A stretch of 64,000 nucleotides of DNA from Gemmatimonadota bacterium (GTDB taxonomy: Bacteria; JAAXHH01), in contig VXWP01000087.1 in assembly GCA_009835325.1 (NCBI GenBank), positions 21,231-85,230 of the forward strand. Reading direction: 5' to 3'. This document shows, piece by piece, positions 21,131-57,784 of the stretch (the first letter of the stretch is position 1; every line of letters starts with the position of its first letter). Position numbers and translations under genes: made by a program. Under the pieces are notes generated by a model. It had not been told where the DNA came from. It saw only the letters and a program-made list of their open reading frames with translations, and did no database searches.

Positions 21131-22067
21131 CTCCGCCGTTGAGGAGATAGAGGACCGCCATGCGCACCGCGACGCCGTTGGTCACCTGGTCCAGAATGAC
21201 CGATCTCCCGCTGTCCGCCACGCGGCTGTCGAGTTCCACGCCGCGGTTGATGGGGCCGGGGTGCATGACGATGGCTTCGGGTTTGGCGAGTTCCAGCCGT
21301 TCGGGGTCGATGCCGAACAGGCGCGTGTACTCGCGCTGGGACGGGAAGAAGGCTTCCTGTTGCCGTTCGAGCTGTATCCGCAGGGCGTAGATTACGTCGG
21401 CGTCGCGGAGGGCGTCGCCGATCCGGTAGCTGACCTCCACGCCCATCTCCTCGATGTCGACGGGAATCAGCGTGGGCGGCCCGCATACGACCACGTCGGC
21501 GCCCATTTTCCGGAGTCCCCAGATATTGGAGCGCGCCACCCGGCTGTGGGCGATATCGCCGATAAGCGCCACCTTCAGGCCCTCCAGCCGGCCCAGGGCG
21601 TCCCGCATGGTCAGGAGGTCCAGCAACCCCTGCGTGGGATGTTCGTGGGCGCCGTCGCCCGCGTTGATGACGACCGCGCTCGACAGGCACTGCGAGAGGA
21701 AGAGGGGCGCGCCGGCGGCGGCATGGCGCACCACCACGCAGTCCACCTGCATGGCTTCGATGTTCCGCGCCGTGTCGCTCAGGGATTCTCCCTTGGACAC
21801 GCTGCTGCCGGTGGACGCGAAGTTCAGGGTGTCTGCGGAGAGTTGCTTCTCGGCGAGTTCGAAGGAAAGCCGCGTGCGGGTGCTCGATTCGAAGAAGAGG
21901 TTTACGACGTTCTTCCCGCGGAGGGCGGGGACCTTGCGGATGGGCCGCCGGATCACTTCCTTGAAGGAGTCCGCCGTATCCAGGATCAGTCCGATCTCCT
22001 CGCGGGCGTAGTCCTCGAGGCCGATCAGGTGTCGGTGGCGCAGCGTTCGGAGCCGGTTCTTCGCCAT
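21111..22067 (-). CDS. pyrB: aspartate carbamoyltransferase catalytic subunit
   Basis: 318 aa; FFESSTRTRLSFELA and HPTQGLLD motifs. Confidence 0.95.
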   Translation of the reverse strand: MAKNRLRTLRHRHLIGLEDYAREEIGLILDTADSFKEVIRRPIRKVPALRGKNVVNLFFESSTRTRLSFELAEKQLSADTLNFASTGSSVSKGESLSDTARNIEAMQVDCVVVRHAAAGAPLFLSQCLSSAVVINAGDGAHEHPTQGLLDLLTMRDALGRLEGLKVALIGDIAHSRVARSNIWGLRKMGADVVVCGPPTLIPVDIEEMGVEVSYRIGDALRDADVIYALRIQLERQQEAFFPSQREYTRLFGIDPERLELAKPEAIVMHPGPINRGVELDSRVADSGRSVILDQVTNGVAVRMAVLYLLNGGGERDAA

Positions 22068-36093: not shown

Positions 36094-36180
36094 CGTACCG
36101 GACCAGACTTGCCGGATCGTACCTGCCGAATCCCCCAGTCCGGACTGAAGCCTGACGTGCCAGCCAGACCACATCCCAAT

Positions 36181-36214
36181 AAAAAAACGAGGCGGTCCTT
36201 GTCGAACCGCCCCG
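36181..36214 (-). terminator. rho-independent terminator of the 36279-36860 gene
   Basis: Minus strand CGGGGCGGT-tcgacaagg-ACCGCCTCG followed by TTTTTTT. Confidence 0.7.
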
Positions 36215-36278
36215 TCCAATTGATCTTCGTCGTACTGTAGTTGAACCCTGAATTCCAGGGTGCTCCGCTACCGGGAGA

Positions 36279-36860
36279 TCAGTCCACGGTCTCCATCGTC
36301 GTTGCCACCGATTTCAAGAGCCTGTCTTTCATATTCCACACCGTGTAACCGGTGTCGATCAGCCCGGTAGGCGCGTCCTTCCACTCGGCATCCTTGCCGT
36401 AGAGGAAATAGGCGTCCCAGACCATGGGGTCCTTGTGTTCCAGTTCCCCCGACTTCTTGTACCAGAATCCCAGTGCGTTCGCGGGGTCCCACATCTGGCT
36501 GACCCGTTTGTCGCTGAACACCTGCTCCGCCGCGATCTTGGCCGTATTGACCGCGTCGTTTCGGAGTATACGCTGCCAGACCACGTAGACCCGGAGGTCA
36601 TCGGAGGGAAACTTATTCAATATCTCTTGCTGCACCGCCCCGGCGCCGCTTATGCAGTGGCCTCAGGTAGGCGAGAACATCACGACGAGGCGGACTTTTC
36701 CGGTATCGCCGTTGAACGCCTTCTTGAAATCCACGAGGCTGAGCGGTTCCGGGTTGAAGCTAGTGTTGGTGTTGAGTTGAGCGCCGGCCTGCGAAGCCCA
36801 CGACAGGGCTCCGGCCAGGATCAGCGCGGTGACCAAGCGAATTCGGTTTGTCATTTGCAT
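36279..36860 (-). CDS. secreted thioredoxin-fold protein with in-frame TGA at the CxxC position (candidate selenocysteine, U-G-H-C)
   Basis: Track ORFs 36663..36860 and 36279..36635 share a frame and are separated by one TGA (36663-36665). Read-through gives signal peptide plus VRLVVMFSPT-[TGA]-GHCISGAGAVQQEIL... Confidence 0.55.
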
Positions 36861-36975
36861 CGATCCATTTTCAGGTGGTGGACTAAAACCCCGGTCGTCC
36901 CGGGCCGGTCGGGTTAACTATGATATCGACTATGCGTATAGATTGACAAGTGAAATCTTAAGCCTTTTGGACGGC

Positions 36976-37013
36976 GCAACTAGACCGGGACGATGCGACT
37001 AGACCGGGACGGC
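36976..37013. repeat. 19-bp x2 tandem repeat downstream of ychF
   Basis: gcaactagaccgggacgat / gcgactagaccgggacggc. Confidence 0.85.
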
Positions 37014-37017
37014 GTGG

Positions 37018-37076
37018 TCAGATCAGGTCCGCGCAGTCAGACGTTGAAGCGTGCTTTCAGACGCTGAACCGCACGT
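37018..37076. repeat. three about 20-bp TCAGA-initiated units; the last is the ychF stop plus final codons
   Basis: tcagacgttgaagcgtgctt (37037) versus tcagacgctgaaccgcacgt (37057), 15/20; weaker unit at 37018. Confidence 0.6.
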
Positions 37077-38130
37077 TGATCACGTCCCCGTCCGCGACGA
37101 CGTACTGCTTGCCTTCCACGCGAAGCGTGCCTTTCTCCTTCGCGGCCTGCCATCCACCGAGTTCGAGCATCGCCTGCCAGTCCAGCGTTTCCGCCCGGAT
37201 GAATCCCCGTTCCATGTCCGAGTGCACCGTCCCGGCCGCTTCGGGCGCCGTAACGCCCCTTGTGACGGTCCAGGCCCTGACTTCGTTTTCGCCCACGGTA
37301 AAGAACGAGATCAGGTTAAGGAGCCGGTACGATGCGGTGATCATGCGGTTCAGGGCCGATTCCTCGATGCCCAGATCGTCCAAGAAAGCGCCGGCGTCGT
37401 CCTCGTCGAGCTGGGCGATCTCCATTTCGACCTTCGCACAGAACGCCAGCGAATCCAGCCCTTCGGTAATTTCATCCAACTCATCCAGTCTGCTCGCTTC
37501 CTTGCCCAGATCTTCTTCGGGGATATTCAGCGCAAGTAGCACCGGCTTCTGCGAGAGGAACCGGTAGCCTCGAAGTCTCTTCTCGTCCTCCGGCGAAAAC
37601 TGGAGATTCCGGATCAACCCACCGCCCTCGATCTCCTGCTTGCACTGTTCGAGCAACTCCCATTCCCGCACCAGGTCGGGCTGTTTCGTGGACCGGGCCT
37701 CCTTGGATAGTCGGGTCAGCCGGCGCTCGATGATCTCGAGGTCGGCGATGGCGAGTTCCAACTCAACCGTCTCGAAATCCGCGCCCGGTGTAACGGACGT
37801 ACCGGCCAGATCCGGGAAGCCACGGAGGACGTGCACGAGTACGTCCATAGTGCGCAGGTCGGCGAGTCCACCGGCACCCTGCTGCTCCTCCTGCCTTCCC
37901 GACCCGGACGTGATGCCGCCTATATCGAGGTATTCAACGGTGGCGAAAGTGGTCTTGCGTGGATTGAACAGACTGGAAAGGCGTTCCAGTCGCGGGTCCG
38001 GGACCCGGATCGTCCCCCGGTTGGCCGTGTTCTGCCCTCCGTAACCGCCGGTATCCGCGTTGGCCCTGACCAGCGCGTTGAACAACGTGGTCTTCCCGGA
38101 ACCGGGCAGCCCGACTAGGCCGATCTGCAA
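37057..38130 (-). CDS. ychF: redox-regulated ribosome-binding ATPase YchF
   Basis: 357 aa; MQIGLVGLPGSGKTTLFNAL, C-terminal TGS-like ...VRAWTV..G..AP.AAG..HSD..RGFI. Confidence 0.95.
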   Translation of the reverse strand: MQIGLVGLPGSGKTTLFNALVRANADTGGYGGQNTANRGTIRVPDPRLERLSSLFNPRKTTFATVEYLDIGGITSGSGRQEEQQGAGGLADLRTMDVLVHVLRGFPDLAGTSVTPGADFETVELELAIADLEIIERRLTRLSKEARSTKQPDLVREWELLEQCKQEIEGGGLIRNLQFSPEDEKRLRGYRFLSQKPVLLALNIPEEDLGKEASRLDELDEITEGLDSLAFCAKVEMEIAQLDEDDAGAFLDDLGIEESALNRMITASYRLLNLISFFTVGENEVRAWTVTRGVTAPEAAGTVHSDMERGFIRAETLDWQAMLELGGWQAAKEKGTLRVEGKQYVVADGDVINVRFSV

Positions 38131-38145
38131 TTCGGTGTCCTCCCC

Positions 38146-39261
38146 TCAAACACAAAACGCGCGGATCATCGACTTGTACGCGTCGATCGCAAGGTCGAAC
38201 TGGTCCAGGGCCATCCATTCGTCCACCGTGTGGGCCTGGCGGATGTCCCCGGGACCGAGCAGGATCAGCTCCATTGTCCTGCCAAAGACCAGTCCGTCGG
38301 TGCCGTAGGGAACCGTGTGGGCCTTCTCCGTTCCGGTGATCCCCAGGGCCGTCCGGACAAGCTCCGAGTCCGCGGGCGTACTGAAGGGGTCCCCGATCTT
38401 CTGGATCGTCAGTTCAACGCCGTTCCGTTCTGCCGCTTTTCGGGTGCGGTCCAGGAGGGCTTCCTGATCCTGCCCGGGCATCGGCCGGTAGTAGACCGTG
38501 CATGTGCTTTTGGGCGCCGTCATGTTCAGGGCGATGCCGCCGTCGTTGACCCCGATGTTCCAGTCGGAAAAGGGCGGATCGAACTCGTCATTCAGATGCC
38601 TGGAGTCCGACCTGAGCTCGTCGTGGATGGCCTTCATCTCCACGAGAAAGGGGATCATGGCGTGATGGGCGTTGACGCCTCTGCCGGTGCTACTGTGGGC
38701 TGCCCGCCCCTCCGTCTCGCCCCGCATGAAAACCGCGCCCTTGTGCGCTCGTACGACCTCCATGCGCGTCGGCTCGCAGATGATCCCGTAGCGCAGCCCG
38801 CTGCCGTTCAGGAGTTCGGACCGCTCGCTGACTTCGGCCGCGCCCCAGCACCCGACTTCCTCGTCGGCGGTGAACACGAGATAGATCGGCGCGGAGAGTT
38901 CCGACGCCTCGAAGGCCGCCCCCGCCGCGAGCATGGTGGACAGGGCGCCCTTCATGTCGCAGCTTCCGCGGCCGTATATCCGGTTGTCCCGGATCTCCGC
39001 CGTAAAAGGGTCCGTTTCCCAACCGTCTACCGGGACGGTGTCCGAATGGCCCAGCAGCGCGAGGCCGCCCTTCCCCTCGCCCTTGCGGCCGACGAGGTTG
39101 ACCTTCTCCACGCCGTTGTCGTCATGGTACGTAATGCGTTCGACCTGAAAACCCACGCGGTCGACCTGGTCCTGGAGGTAATCGGATACGGCGGCGTTGC
39201 TGTTGGCGCTGATCGAATTGAACGCGATCAACTCCCTGGTGACCTGGAGGGGATCGAACAT
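38146..39261 (-). CDS. M20-family deacylase (acetylornithine deacetylase/succinyl-DAP desuccinylase-like)
   Basis: 371 aa; LLGHSDTVP, GRGSCDMKG, FTADEEVG motifs. Confidence 0.8.
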   Translation of the reverse strand: MFDPLQVTRELIAFNSISANSNAAVSDYLQDQVDRVGFQVERITYHDDNGVEKVNLVGRKGEGKGGLALLGHSDTVPVDGWETDPFTAEIRDNRIYGRGSCDMKGALSTMLAAGAAFEASELSAPIYLVFTADEEVGCWGAAEVSERSELLNGSGLRYGIICEPTRMEVVRAHKGAVFMRGETEGRAAHSSTGRGVNAHHAMIPFLVEMKAIHDELRSDSRHLNDEFDPPFSDWNIGVNDGGIALNMTAPKSTCTVYYRPMPGQDQEALLDRTRKAAERNGVELTIQKIGDPFSTPADSELVRTALGITGTEKAHTVPYGTDGLVFGRTMELILLGPGDIRQAHTVDEWMALDQFDLAIDAYKSMIRAFCV

Positions 39262-39306
39262 CGCTTAAAGCCTGCTTTCTTTGGTTGGAGGATGCCAATG
39301 GGAGGA

Positions 39307-39390
39307 TGCCGGAGGTCGGACTCGAACCGACACGACCTTGCGGTCAAGGGATTTTGAGTCCCTCGCGTCTACCAATTCCACCACTCCGGC
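39307..39390 (-). tRNA. tRNA-Leu (anticodon CAA)
   Basis: GCCGGAGTGGTGGAATTGGTAGACGCGAGGGACTCAAAATCCC...long variable arm...GGTTCGAGTCCGACCTCCGGCA; cloverleaf folded by eye. Confidence 0.9.
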
Positions 39391-39398
39391 ACAATCAA

Positions 39399-39436
39399 GA
39401 TAGCCCGCCGGAGACATGCGCGTCAGGCGGGCTATC
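39399..39436 (-). other. 11-bp-stem hairpin between tRNA-Asp and tRNA-Leu (terminator or processing signal)
   Basis: GATAGCCCGCC ... GGCGGGCTATC followed on the minus strand by TTGATTGT. Confidence 0.4.
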
Positions 39437-39449
39437 GGTCAATATAAAA

Positions 39450-39524
39450 CGGGGACGACGGGACTCGAACCCGCAACTTCTGCCGTGACAGGGCAGTGCT
39501 CTAACCAGATTGAACTACGCCCCC
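39450..39524 (-). tRNA. tRNA-Asp (anticodon GTC)
   Basis: GGGGGCGTAGTTCAATCTGGTTAGAGCACTGCCCTGTCACGGCAGAAGTTGCGGGTTCGAGTCCCGTCGTCCCCG. Confidence 0.9.
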
Positions 39525-39535
39525 GATTTGATGCA

Positions 39536-39610
39536 TGGGCGATACTGGATTCGAACCAGTGACCTCATGCTTGTAAGGCATGCGCTCTGAACCAACTGAG
39601 CTAATCGCCC
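39536..39610 (-). tRNA. tRNA-Val (anticodon TAC)
   Basis: GGGCGATTAGCTCAGTTGGTTCAGAGCGCATGCCTTACAAGCATGAGGTCACTGGTTCGAATCCAGTATCGCCCA. Confidence 0.9.
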
Positions 39611-56516: not shown

Positions 56517-56788
56517 GGTCGTGCACCCACCCTCGAATCTACTCGTATCGAGGCATCCGTGCCGCCGGCTCCGGCCAGGCGCTCCCGCGGCACACGCTTC
56601 ATGCGCTTACCGCTGCTACCTTCCGGTCCTGACGGGGTTGGGCGTTGTCACGTTGCGCGGGACCTGACTTTCAATACCGGATGCAGCGCATACCGGCGAC
56701 GCAAGTGCGATCCTCGGGATGGGAATTCGATCCCGCTGTAGCGGGTTGCGGGTTACAGGGCACCGCTAACTCCCCATCTAGCACGACC
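56517..56788 (-). ncRNA. ffs: signal recognition particle RNA, long (Alu-domain-containing, Bacillus-type)
   Basis: Domain IV GUCAGGACCGGAAGGUAGCAGC ... GCGUGUGCCGCGGGA; closing helix GGUCGUGC (56788-81) with GCACGACC (56524-17); 5' segment GGGGAGUUAGCGGUGCCCUGUAACCCGC...GCGGGAUCGAAUUCCC resembles the B. subtilis scRNA 5' domain from memory. Confidence 0.8.
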
Positions 56789-56870
56789 GTAATCGATCCA
56801 AGCCTGTAATACGGATGGCGGGGACACCGGCTGCCTTGAACACCGACTGCCTGGCGCCCGGCCTTCCGAG

Positions 56871-56943
56871 TGGAGCAGAGCGGAATCGAACCGCCGACCT
56901 CCAGATTGCGATTCTGGCGCTCTCCCAACTGAGCTACTGCCCC
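56871..56943 (-). tRNA. tRNA-Ala (anticodon CGC)
   Basis: GGGGCAGTAGCTCAGTTGGGAGAGCGCCAGAATCGCAATCTGGAGGTCGGCGGTTCGATTCCGCTCTGCTCCA; G3-U70 pair present. Confidence 0.9.
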
Positions 56944-56953
56944 AAAACAATTA

Positions 56954-57039
56954 CGGAGAGGGTGGGATTCGAACCCACGGTCCACATGGTGAACACACGC
57001 TCTCCAGGCGTGCCGATTCAACCGCTCTCGCACCTCTCC
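56954..57039 (-). tRNA. tRNA-Ser (anticodon GGA)
   Basis: GGAGAGGTGCGAGAGCGGTTGAATCGGCACGCCTGGAGAGCGTG...long variable arm...GGGTTCGAATCCCACCCTCTCCG. Confidence 0.9.
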
Positions 57040-57110
57040 CAGGTCAATGTCTGAAGCCATTGCCGTGGCCGGTAGCCATCCTCCGGGATTCCGTTCAGCA
57101 GGCTGTAGAA

Positions 57111-57195
57111 CGGAGAGGGTGGGATTCGAACCCACGGTGCCCGAAGGCACAACGGTTTTCGAGACCGTCCGATTCAACCACTCTCGCACCTCTCC
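57111..57195 (-). tRNA. tRNA-Ser (anticodon CGA)
   Basis: GGAGAGGTGCGAGAGTGGTTGAATCGGACGGTCTCGAAAACCGT...long variable arm...GGGTTCGAATCCCACCCTCTCCG. Confidence 0.9.
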
Positions 57196-57689
57196 GGCAA
57201 CCTCGGTTCGTCAACTGTATCGCCCGCTCCCCTTTTCGCCCTGAAGAATTCTTTCAACAGCCCTGAACAGGTTTCCGCCAGCACCCCTCGCGTTACAGCC
57301 ACCTGGTGATTCAACCGGGTGTCCCGCACGATATCGCGCAGGGACCCACAGGCCCCGGTCTTGGGATCGTCTGCCCCGTACACGATTTCGTCCAGTCGAG
57401 CCAGTACGATCGCGCCCGCGCACATGGCGCAGGGTTCCAGCGTAACGTAGAGCGTGGCACCGGCCAGCCGTTCATAGCCCTGCGTTGAACTGGCTTCCCG
57501 GATCGCGAGCATCTCGGCATGAGCCGTGGGATCGCGCAACCGTTCCACGCGATTCTGGCCCCGGCCGATGATCACGCCATCGTGAACGATCACGGCTCCG
57601 ACGGGCACATCACCGGCGGCTCCCGCCGACCGGGCTTCTTCCAGCGCCAGCCTGAGCCATTCTTCGTGTTCGCCCTCGTTCGTTCTCAT
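57174..57689 (-). CDS. tadA: tRNA-specific adenosine deaminase TadA
   Basis: Start at MRTNEGEHEEWLRLALEEA (Met17); HAEMLAIREA and PCAMCAGA zinc motifs; last 22 nt including the stop lie inside tRNA-Ser(CGA). Confidence 0.9.
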   Translation of the reverse strand: MRTNEGEHEEWLRLALEEARSAGAAGDVPVGAVIVHDGVIIGRGQNRVERLRDPTAHAEMLAIREASSTQGYERLAGATLYVTLEPCAMCAGAIVLARLDEIVYGADDPKTGACGSLRDIVRDTRLNHQVAVTRGVLAETCSGLLKEFFRAKRGAGDTVDEPRLPERCESG

Positions 57690-57710
57690 GCTCCCGCGTC
57701 CCACGGAAAA

Positions 57711-57784
57711 TACGCCCGGAGGGAGTCGAACCCCCAACCTCCTGATCCGTAGTCAGGTGCTCTATCCAATTGAGCTACAGGCGC
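57711..57784 (-). tRNA. tRNA-Arg (anticodon ACG)
   Basis: GCGCCTGTAGCTCAATTGGATAGAGCACCTGACTACGGATCAGGAGGTTGGGGGTTCGACTCCCTCCGGGCGTA; by eye the acceptor stem has G1-U72 and U6-G67 wobbles, ends +/-1. Confidence 0.85.

Follow-up and report, generated by a model that had tools for sequence, protein, structure and literature searches.

The 64,000-nt stretch analyzed here (positions 21,231 to 85,230 of contig VXWP01000087.1 from a Gemmatimonadota bacterium; hereafter the window) contains two minus-strand open reading frames (ORFs), 36663..36860 and 36279..36635, that share one frame and are separated by only one TGA and nine sense codons, which raises the question of whether this TGA is a stop codon or a codon for selenocysteine (Sec, U). 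Translation of the window revealed that minus-strand positions 36860..36279 form one reading frame with a single in-frame TGA at 36665-36663: the ORF 36860..36663 consists of 65 codons and the TGA, and the ORF 36635..36279 consists of 118 codons with a GTG start. The read-through product has 193 residues (...VRLVVMFSPT-[TGA]-GHCISGAGAVQQ...); the residues flanking the TGA are ...GKVRLVVMFSPT-[TGA]-GHCISGAGAVQQEIL..., and the local motif is SPT-U-GHC. An initial annotation of the window had reported the same-frame ORFs, the single TGA with its nine sense codons and the 193-residue product, all of which the translation confirmed, and had proposed a secreted thioredoxin-fold selenoprotein. We consider it very probable that the in-frame TGA encodes Sec and that this is a genuine Sec-encoding gene, because the TGA is conserved, it forms a Cys/Sec pair with homologues, it is followed by a covarying hairpin of the bacterial Sec insertion sequence (bSECIS) type, and TGA is an ordinary stop elsewhere.

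A first homologue search, with the read-through protein in which U was replaced by C as the query, returned 22 clusters, all but one of which were proteins of 113-119 aa matching the 3' half only. The sole exception, P0018, has SPT-W-SQC at this place; the codon in its contig is TGA, the database entry was not reproduced from the contig under genetic code table 11, and the Trp is therefore ascribed to the genetic code used by the gene caller. Database translations likewise show W at the Sec column in P0037, P0041 and P0110, and G in P0035, and these W and G translations probably stem from genetic code 4 or 25 set by gene callers on short contigs. Every fetched locus showed the same arrangement, an ORF of 61-65 aa followed by 27 nt and then the 3' ORF in the same frame, and the interruption was always TGA, located at the same column in 13 of the first 13 loci. 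For each GTDB species one genome was scanned, which yielded 44 loci, with the column readable in 42; 41 of these had TGA and one (L054) had TGC (Cys), and neither TAA nor TAG was ever present. Among soil-metagenome contigs, for which the scan was seeded with Cys-form sequences, TGA was found in 77 of 80 loci and TGC in L060 and L098; the soil origin of these 80 loci is mostly suggested by contig names. Both halves of the gene were kept in frame with protein-level conservation in the TGA loci, and the second Cys of UxxC was present in all TGA forms from species and soil metagenomes.

The close clade comprises 23 species with 59-99% identity, represented by metagenome-assembled genomes (MAGs) that bear the labels Gemmatimonadota/-etes or "Candidatus Latescibacterota"; sponge or coral sources are suggested by isolate names like APA_bin, IRC1_bin and Plut_. 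Many of its members are complete chromosomes of 3.5-3.9 Mb, and complete chromosomes with the gene include OZ220749.1, OY843748.1, OZ241920.1 and OX638340.1; the window DNA itself is ~95% identical to the 3.84-Mb contig CBDETH010000008.1, which also carries the gene. More distant relatives (31-43% identity) are MAGs labelled Pyrinomonadaceae or other Acidobacteriota, Dormiibacterota, Chloroflexi and Anaerolineales. The same unannotated gene is thus found in bacteria labelled as at least four phyla.

Homologues with a cysteine at the TGA column were revealed by a profile search over 1.84 billion representatives, for which the profile was built from an alignment of exact sequence pieces. Of the 860 homologue clusters obtained, the best ~150 included 87 that were full-length and contained SPT-C-x-x-C at the TGA column; the others among these ~150 were shortened 3' halves or proteins starting right after U, and a few had W or G. 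In an alignment of 181 residues covering both halves (37% identity, E 2e-40), U66 falls opposite Cys65 of the full-length Cys form P0025. These alignments place a predicted Cys/Sec pair at the first residue of a CxxC redox motif. The initial annotation had assigned Sec to this position and had suggested comparison with homologues as a check, and the outcome was positive on both counts, with Cys at the column in 87 homologue clusters and TGA in 118 further loci.

The family to which the protein belongs was not recognized by curated models: no Pfam-A or NCBIfam cut-off was reached by the window protein, the read-through proteins of the soil clade or the Cys forms, and the window protein matched no Pfam family at E <= 1 and, in NCBIfam, only TIGR01126 (E = 0.14). 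Sub-threshold matches over the strand-CxxC segment were to pdi_dom (E = 0.14), Thioredoxin_4, Redoxin, StoA and MJ0307 thioredoxin, and comparison of the family profile with PDB sequences gave four weak matches (E 0.025-0.34), all of them to proteins of the thioredoxin fold whose CxxC lines up with the motif. An AlphaFold model of the Cys homologue P0025, computed from a 42-sequence family alignment, had a predicted local distance difference test score (pLDDT) of 97-98 through the domain and a predicted template modelling score (pTM) of 0.79. Its topology is beta1-[CxxC]alpha1-beta2-alpha2-beta3-alpha3-beta4-beta5-alpha4, with the CxxC residues 65-68 between strand 56-61 and helix 66-80, and an N-terminal helix (residues 5-27) lies outside the domain. 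Foldseek comparison of this model with PDB revealed ResA, TlpA-like proteins, CcmG/DsbE, Etrx1, Sco1 and GPx (probability 1.0, E about 1e-5; 12-20% identity for the top matches); there were 72 matches with E <= 0.001, and among the 50 matches listed, all were thioredoxin-fold proteins or designs based on one. The modelling of P0025 thus agrees with the fold named in the initial annotation, and supports a thioredoxin fold for the family, which would be a distinct sequence family within the thioredoxin-like superfamily, with no curated family of its own.

The alignment signature of the family consists of SPT-U-x-x-C, (Y/A)VW, D-x-R-V-x-[HQ]-x-WD, WD-x-Y-x-L-Y and a later W. In the window protein (K-D-P-M-V-W-D), as in many homologues, the WD-x-Y strand is preceded by a Pro, which several homologues lack. 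The N-terminus, as read by eye, combines a basic n-region with a hydrophobic core of 13 residues and A-x-A, a layout shared by close homologues, and the protein is probably exported via this predicted signal peptide. Three large relatives of 571-708 aa (P0023, P0024 and P0028) contain two copies of the thioredoxin-like domain, and P0023 and P0024 also contain a heavy-metal-associated (HMA) domain; the C-terminal region of P0023 is weakly similar to 'DF family (seleno)protein' NF049942 (40 bits vs a cut-off of 70). The HMA-domain fusions hint weakly that some family members are connected with the handling of metals or thiols.

Directly 3' of the TGA, the mRNA can form a hairpin that starts 16 nt downstream of the UGA and has a UGA-to-loop distance of 22 nt (Table 1). 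The core has a minimum free energy (MFE) of -7.6 kcal/mol, and inclusion of the two outer pairs predicted in the window's clade gives -12.0 kcal/mol; these outer pairs are not kept in distant clades. The bSECIS model specifies a loop of 3-9 nt whose first two positions contain G, an upper stem of 4-16 bp, a UGA-to-loop distance of 16-37 nt and an MFE <= -7.5 kcal/mol (PMC13188914), and the hairpin agrees with it in every respect, with a loop of 3 nt, a G[G/U] start, a stem of 6 bp, a spacing of 22 nt and an MFE of -7.6/-12.0. The initial annotation had also placed a SECIS element 3' of the TGA, and its position stood, as did its apex at about +14..+26, which coincides with the conserved hairpin. 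The pairing drawn there did not: the stem CUGCAU (+6..+11)/GUGCAG (+28..+33) overlaps the conserved 3' arm, is not chosen by folding and is absent in distant clades.

Comparison of homologues revealed strong constraint on this hairpin. Pairwise synonymous divergence among seven distinct close-clade sequences fell from 0.3-0.55 to 0.07 in codons +3..+10 after the TGA, and GGC, which accounts for only 18% of Gly codons in the window's clade, is yet fixed in the stem. All six pairs were present in 41 of 42 species loci and in 67 of 77 soil-metagenome TGA sequences, and the remainder had five. Across 29 distinct sequences, pairing was found in 99.4% of cells, compared with 90.6% in column shuffles (0 of 500 shuffles reached the observed value), and sliding the hairpin register left 28-58% of cells paired. 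Compensatory double changes were observed at two of the six stem pairs (G-C<->C-G and C-G<->U-A): the distant-clade hairpin, GCGCCC-GG[CU]/GUU-GGGUGC, has its loop-closing pair changed from G-C to C-G, and further variants also keep the pairing (Table 1). All the TGA sequences compared have a G[G/U]N loop at a distance of 22 nt from the UGA. As a separate observation, L050, L058 and L059 have C opposite C where L112 has a G-C pair, and may be intermediates of the compensatory flip.

The full hairpin was present in 75 of 84 distinct TGA sequences, whereas resampling of synonymous codons according to the codon usage of the genes themselves predicts 11.5, and in one of seven Cys-codon homologues (Fisher p = 5e-5), four of which were without the G[G/U] loop start; the resampling and Fisher p-values ignore sequence relatedness and overstate independence, and the Cys control is small (n=7), which is one of several points that weigh against a Sec codon. 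L060 from a soil metagenome is a Cys form (TGC) with a complete hairpin and a GGU loop, and looks like a recent Sec-to-Cys conversion. Two Rfam scans, one at the gathering threshold and one permissive over 36500-36800, gave chance matches but no SECIS family, and the 61 nt after the TGA, taken from the window sequence alone, fold no better than shuffles (z = 0.11). A loose motif of TGA, GC hairpin and G-start triloop occurs six times in the window; the other five sites fall in frames without coding signal in the scan. Moreover, the peptide encoded by the stem, G-A-x-x-V, favours a partial hairpin regardless of any SECIS function. The locus stands far beyond chance, but only after comparison with homologues, and not from the window sequence alone.

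The remaining points of this kind concern the Sec machinery and the protein model. The window encodes seven ordinary tRNAs and no tRNA-Sec, and tblastn with E. coli probes detected no selA, selB or selD in it, as the initial annotation had stated; nor was any tRNA-Sec found in 44 related loci, or selA, selB or selD by tblastn, in ~1.1 Mb covering +/-10 kb around the gene. A search of the protein database with E. coli SelA gave at least 120 matches, of which those listed were all enterobacterial and hence uninformative. The modelled structure is that of the 37%-identical Cys homologue P0025, not of the window protein. A previous study reported co-occurrence of SelA and SelB in most bins of sponge symbionts (Slaby et al. 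2017, PMC5649159), with SelA = 1 and SelB = 1 in both sponge Gemmatimonadetes bins, bin43 and bin94, and also one SelA and one SelB in the acidobacterium Ca. Solibacter usitatus (PMC5649159, Table S4); these bins are not linked to the window's exact clade, and their support for a Sec machinery is indirect.

Analysis of TGA usage showed that TGA is the commonest stop in the window, ending 18 of 34 long ORFs and this gene itself, and that in every locus the neighbouring genes read intact with table 11. Genome-wide reassignment of TGA was rejected, since TGA is an ordinary stop in the window and of this gene. Other split-ORF candidates in the window were also rejected, being adjacent genes or non-coding frames.

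Among the alternatives, recoding of the UGA to something other than Sec, or not only to Sec, survives best, although we regard it as improbable. Here the codon would be decoded by a suppressor tRNA or a near-cognate one (inserting Trp, Gly or Cys), or by a SelB-dependent tRNA carrying Cys, and the mature protein would contain CxxC or another residue. Cys-charged tRNAs resembling tRNA-Sec have been described in some bacteria, and the failure to find Sec machinery in the window and the related flanks, as well as the W or G at the column in P0018, P0037, P0041, P0110 and P0035, would fit this explanation. However, the W of P0018 is a gene-caller artefact over a TGA in the DNA, and the role of TGA as the main ordinary stop in the window speaks against any general reassignment. 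The conserved hairpin fits the SelB-type bSECIS model, and a costly UGA with its hairpin has been kept across MAGs labelled as several phyla where a simple TGC or TGT would give Cys, which argues against Cys as the inserted residue. The report of SelA and SelB in sponge Gemmatimonadetes bins (PMC5649159) also favours Sec.

Still less probable is that the TGA is a genuine stop, either separating two small genes, for an exported peptide of 65 residues and for a protein of 118 residues started at GTG 36635, or lying in a pseudogene of a former CxxC protein. All gene callers and the NCBI annotation treat the locus in this way, and a GTG lies 27 nt after the TGA. This GTG is, however, a Val codon inside the conserved hairpin arm, and no Shine-Dalgarno-like purine run was seen by eye in the nine codons before it. 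Judged by the P0025 model, the 3' piece alone would be without strand beta-1 and the nucleophile of the thioredoxin fold; the GTG start, the missing Shine-Dalgarno sequence and the missing first beta-strand had all been pointed out in the initial annotation and held up here. Furthermore, the codon is always TGA, never TAA or TAG, and lies exactly on the catalytic Cys column of full-length homologues. A pseudogene is ruled out because both halves are conserved, in frame and at the protein level, across the 23 close-clade species and several labelled phyla. The possibility of a sequencing or assembly error hiding a true TGC or TGT is negligible, because TGA occurs at this codon in >100 independent assemblies from differing studies, technologies and labelled phyla, including complete long-read chromosomes.

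With Sec as the preferred reading of the TGA, expression of the gene can be proposed as follows. The mRNA would be translated from ATG 36860, and the UGA at 36665-36663 would not be a termination point, as the hairpin at 36646-36632 would act as a bacterial SECIS and recruit SelB carrying Sec-tRNA(Sec), leading to insertion of Sec; both the SelB dependence and the incorporation of selenium are predicted from sequence comparison. Translation would run on to the stop TGA at 36281-36279, which has no such hairpin, and transcription would end at the terminator. The product would consist of a signal peptide and a ResA/TlpA/CcmG-type thioredoxin-fold domain, with Sec as the exposed N-terminal nucleophile of U-x-x-C at the start of helix alpha-1, and is most likely a periplasmic thiol:disulfide (selenylsulfide) oxidoreductase.

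Table 1 Coordinates of predicted features at the selenoprotein locus and variants of its hairpin
Feature	Position	Strand	Detail or basis
Selenoprotein coding sequence, 193 codons including the Sec codon (predicted)	36279..36860	minus	start ATG 36860-36858, true stop TGA 36281-36279
In-frame TGA read as selenocysteine (U66; predicted)	36663..36665	minus	TGA kept in homologues, Cys in full-length forms
Redox motif U-G-H-C (UxxC), predicted at helix alpha-1 N-terminus	36654..36665	minus	second Cys in all TGA forms
Putative SECIS core, 6-bp stem and triloop	36632..36646	minus	5' arm 36646-36641 GCGCCG, loop 36640-36638 GGG, 3' arm 36637-36632 CGGUGC
Extended hairpin in the window's clade, outer pairs 36649-36629 and 36648-36630 around a 1x1 internal loop	36629..36649	minus	RNAalifold and single-sequence fold
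Hairpin variant, C-G -> U-A			5' arm GUGCCC, 3' arm GGGUAC; pairing kept
Hairpin variant, C-G -> G-C			5' arm GGGCCC, 3' arm GGGUCC; pairing kept
Hairpin variant, G-U -> A-U			5' arm GCACCC, 3' arm GGGUGC; pairing kept
Hairpin variant, G-U -> G-C and G-C -> G-U			5' arm GCGCCG, 3' arm UGGCGC; pairing kept
GTG called as start of the 118-aa ORF, really Val76 within the hairpin 3' arm	36633..36635	minus	hairpin alignment
Predicted signal peptide of the general secretory (Sec) type	36780..36860	minus	MQMTNRIRLVTALILAGALSWASQAGA, A-G-A before predicted cleavage site; by-eye reading
Sigma-70-like promoter candidate, TTGTCA-18 nt-TATCAT	36920..36949	minus	consensus match only, 10/12 positions
Intrinsic terminator, 14-bp stem (36217-36185) then T-run	36175..36217	minus	pattern scan and folding

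The false start at Val76 recurs in databases, where shortened distant-clade entries begin with 'MQxxIL' at the position matching this codon. The terminator folds with -24.6 kcal/mol (z = -4.23), and 0 of 200 shuffles folded as well, so that the unit has its own terminator, as originally described. The promoter candidate was recovered as well; one site of this pattern was found, compared with 0.3 expected in shuffles. Between it and the start codon, in the presumed 5' untranslated region, lies a second terminator-like hairpin (minus strand 36890-36904, CCCGG-GACGA-CCGGG then GUUUUAG), which could be an attenuator, a remnant of the ychF terminator region, or chance.

Analysis of the gene neighbourhood revealed ychF and the pyruvate dehydrogenase E2/E1 genes as neighbours in the window's clade, and pth-rpsF-rplI-dnaB-alr and an alpha/beta hydrolase gene in Acidobacteriota. 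The neighbours in distant clades are housekeeping genes, and the gene context offers no functional clue and no redox or cytochrome-c-maturation setting. In the window (36279-39610) and in loci L014-L055, the gene lies downstream of a common housekeeping cluster in both the Gemmatimonadota-like clade and Acidobacteriota, and the immediate neighbours differ; the cluster contains pth, rpsF, rpsR and rplI in the window's clade (Pfam labels) and pth, rpsF and rplI, read from the sequences, in Acidobacteriota. A tRNA-Val/Asp/Leu trio at 39304-39610 is also kept in the close clade. Single loci show other neighbours: in L053 (an Anaerolineales MAG), a Cys-rich ORF (CCCVPE..., CPCCGERGKP...) ends about 250 nt upstream of the gene, and in L045 (a Pyrinomonadaceae MAG), an ORF starting about 480 nt downstream resembles, by eye, a cation-diffusion-facilitator exporter with a His-rich N-terminus. 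Elsewhere in the window, on the minus strand at 56519-57784, a bacterial large signal recognition particle RNA (56519-56786, 161.7 bits) adjoins a cluster of tRNA-Ala, Ser, Ser and Arg; these are commonplace genes with no bearing on the predicted selenoprotein.

A literature search found no prior description of the family. In the public annotations examined (NCBI, ENA, JGI and Logan), the 63-65 aa ORF is discarded and the 113-119 aa ORF is kept as a "hypothetical protein". A 2026 review lists 119 bacterial selenoprotein families or subfamilies, of which thioredoxin-fold UxxC proteins are the commonest kind (PMC13188914), and the present family was not recognizable among these 119. It is apparently an uncatalogued selenoprotein family, as judged by comparison with Pfam and NCBIfam models, families defined by CDD or by accession lying outside this comparison. 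We give roughly even odds to the fuller proposal of an uncatalogued family whose main subfamily is mostly Sec-containing, which is widespread in soil lineages (Acidobacteriota, Chloroflexota and Dormiibacterota) and in sponge- or coral-associated Gemmatimonadota-like bacteria, and which has an unusually small SECIS core of 15 nt.

If this is correct, the family could be among the commoner selenoproteins of terrestrial bacteria. Recognition of the two ORFs as one selenoprotein would correct the annotation in at least 41 species-level genomes and many soil contigs, and would add to the bacterial selenoproteome a family-level entry with Sec and Cys forms, for which a profile can be built directly. 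The gene would also serve as a marker of selenium use in little-discussed lineages, namely soil Acidobacteriota/Pyrinomonadaceae, Dormiibacterota, Chloroflexota and sponge-associated Gemmatimonadota. The 6-bp/triloop hairpin with its natural compensatory variants would offer a compact and tractable SECIS for asking what minimal RNA SelB needs. As UxxC thioredoxin-fold proteins are the most typical kind of bacterial selenoprotein, the understanding of the system would be unchanged.

Comparison with known systems places the family among, yet apart from, the catalogued thioredoxin-fold UxxC selenoproteins, which include Sec-thioredoxin, PF13098 (thiol:disulfide interchange protein), PF00578 (Prx-like thiol:disulfide oxidoreductase), PF08534 (redoxin family protein), cd02966 (thiol-disulfide isomerase-like/TlpA-like proteins), SaoT and HUIPC-motif Trx-like proteins (PMC13188914). 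Like these, it is predicted to have a thioredoxin-like fold with Sec first in UxxC at the start of helix alpha-1, a coding-region bSECIS right after the UGA, Cys homologues, and a gene shortened by callers; unlike these, it matches none of their Pfam or NCBIfam models and has its own signature. The best structural matches to the P0025 model are ResA, TlpA and CcmG (DsbE), with a probability of 1.0 and a target-normalised template modelling (TM) score of about 0.6. They share with the family an N-terminal segment for export or anchoring and a dithiol motif in the active site, at the N-terminus of alpha-1, whereas the family differs from them in its low identity (12-20%), the predicted Sec in place of the first Cys, the lack of redox gene context and a cis-Pro that is not evident in all members.

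The initial annotation had also compared the motif with the CGHC of protein disulfide isomerase (PDI). The window's clade does have U-G-H-C, and TIGR01126 gives a weak local match over strand beta-1 and the motif (E = 0.14); in contrast to PDI, the middle residues vary (GH, GQ, GV, SQ, PA, PE, PT, PV, AA and AV), and the match reaches 12.5 bits against a cut-off of 107.2. On this sequence comparison, the PDI resemblance is coincidental.

Between MAGs labelled as different phyla the hairpin sequence hardly differs, in part because the conserved peptide G-A-x-x-V is encoded there. The SECIS of E. coli fdhF has a bulged U; the hairpin of the present family lacks one, and it differs further from fdhF and the bSECIS consensus in its minimal core (15 nt) and in having no lower stem conserved across clades. 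What it has in common with them is a stem-loop in the coding sequence just 3' of the UGA, in which a G and then a G or U open a small loop.

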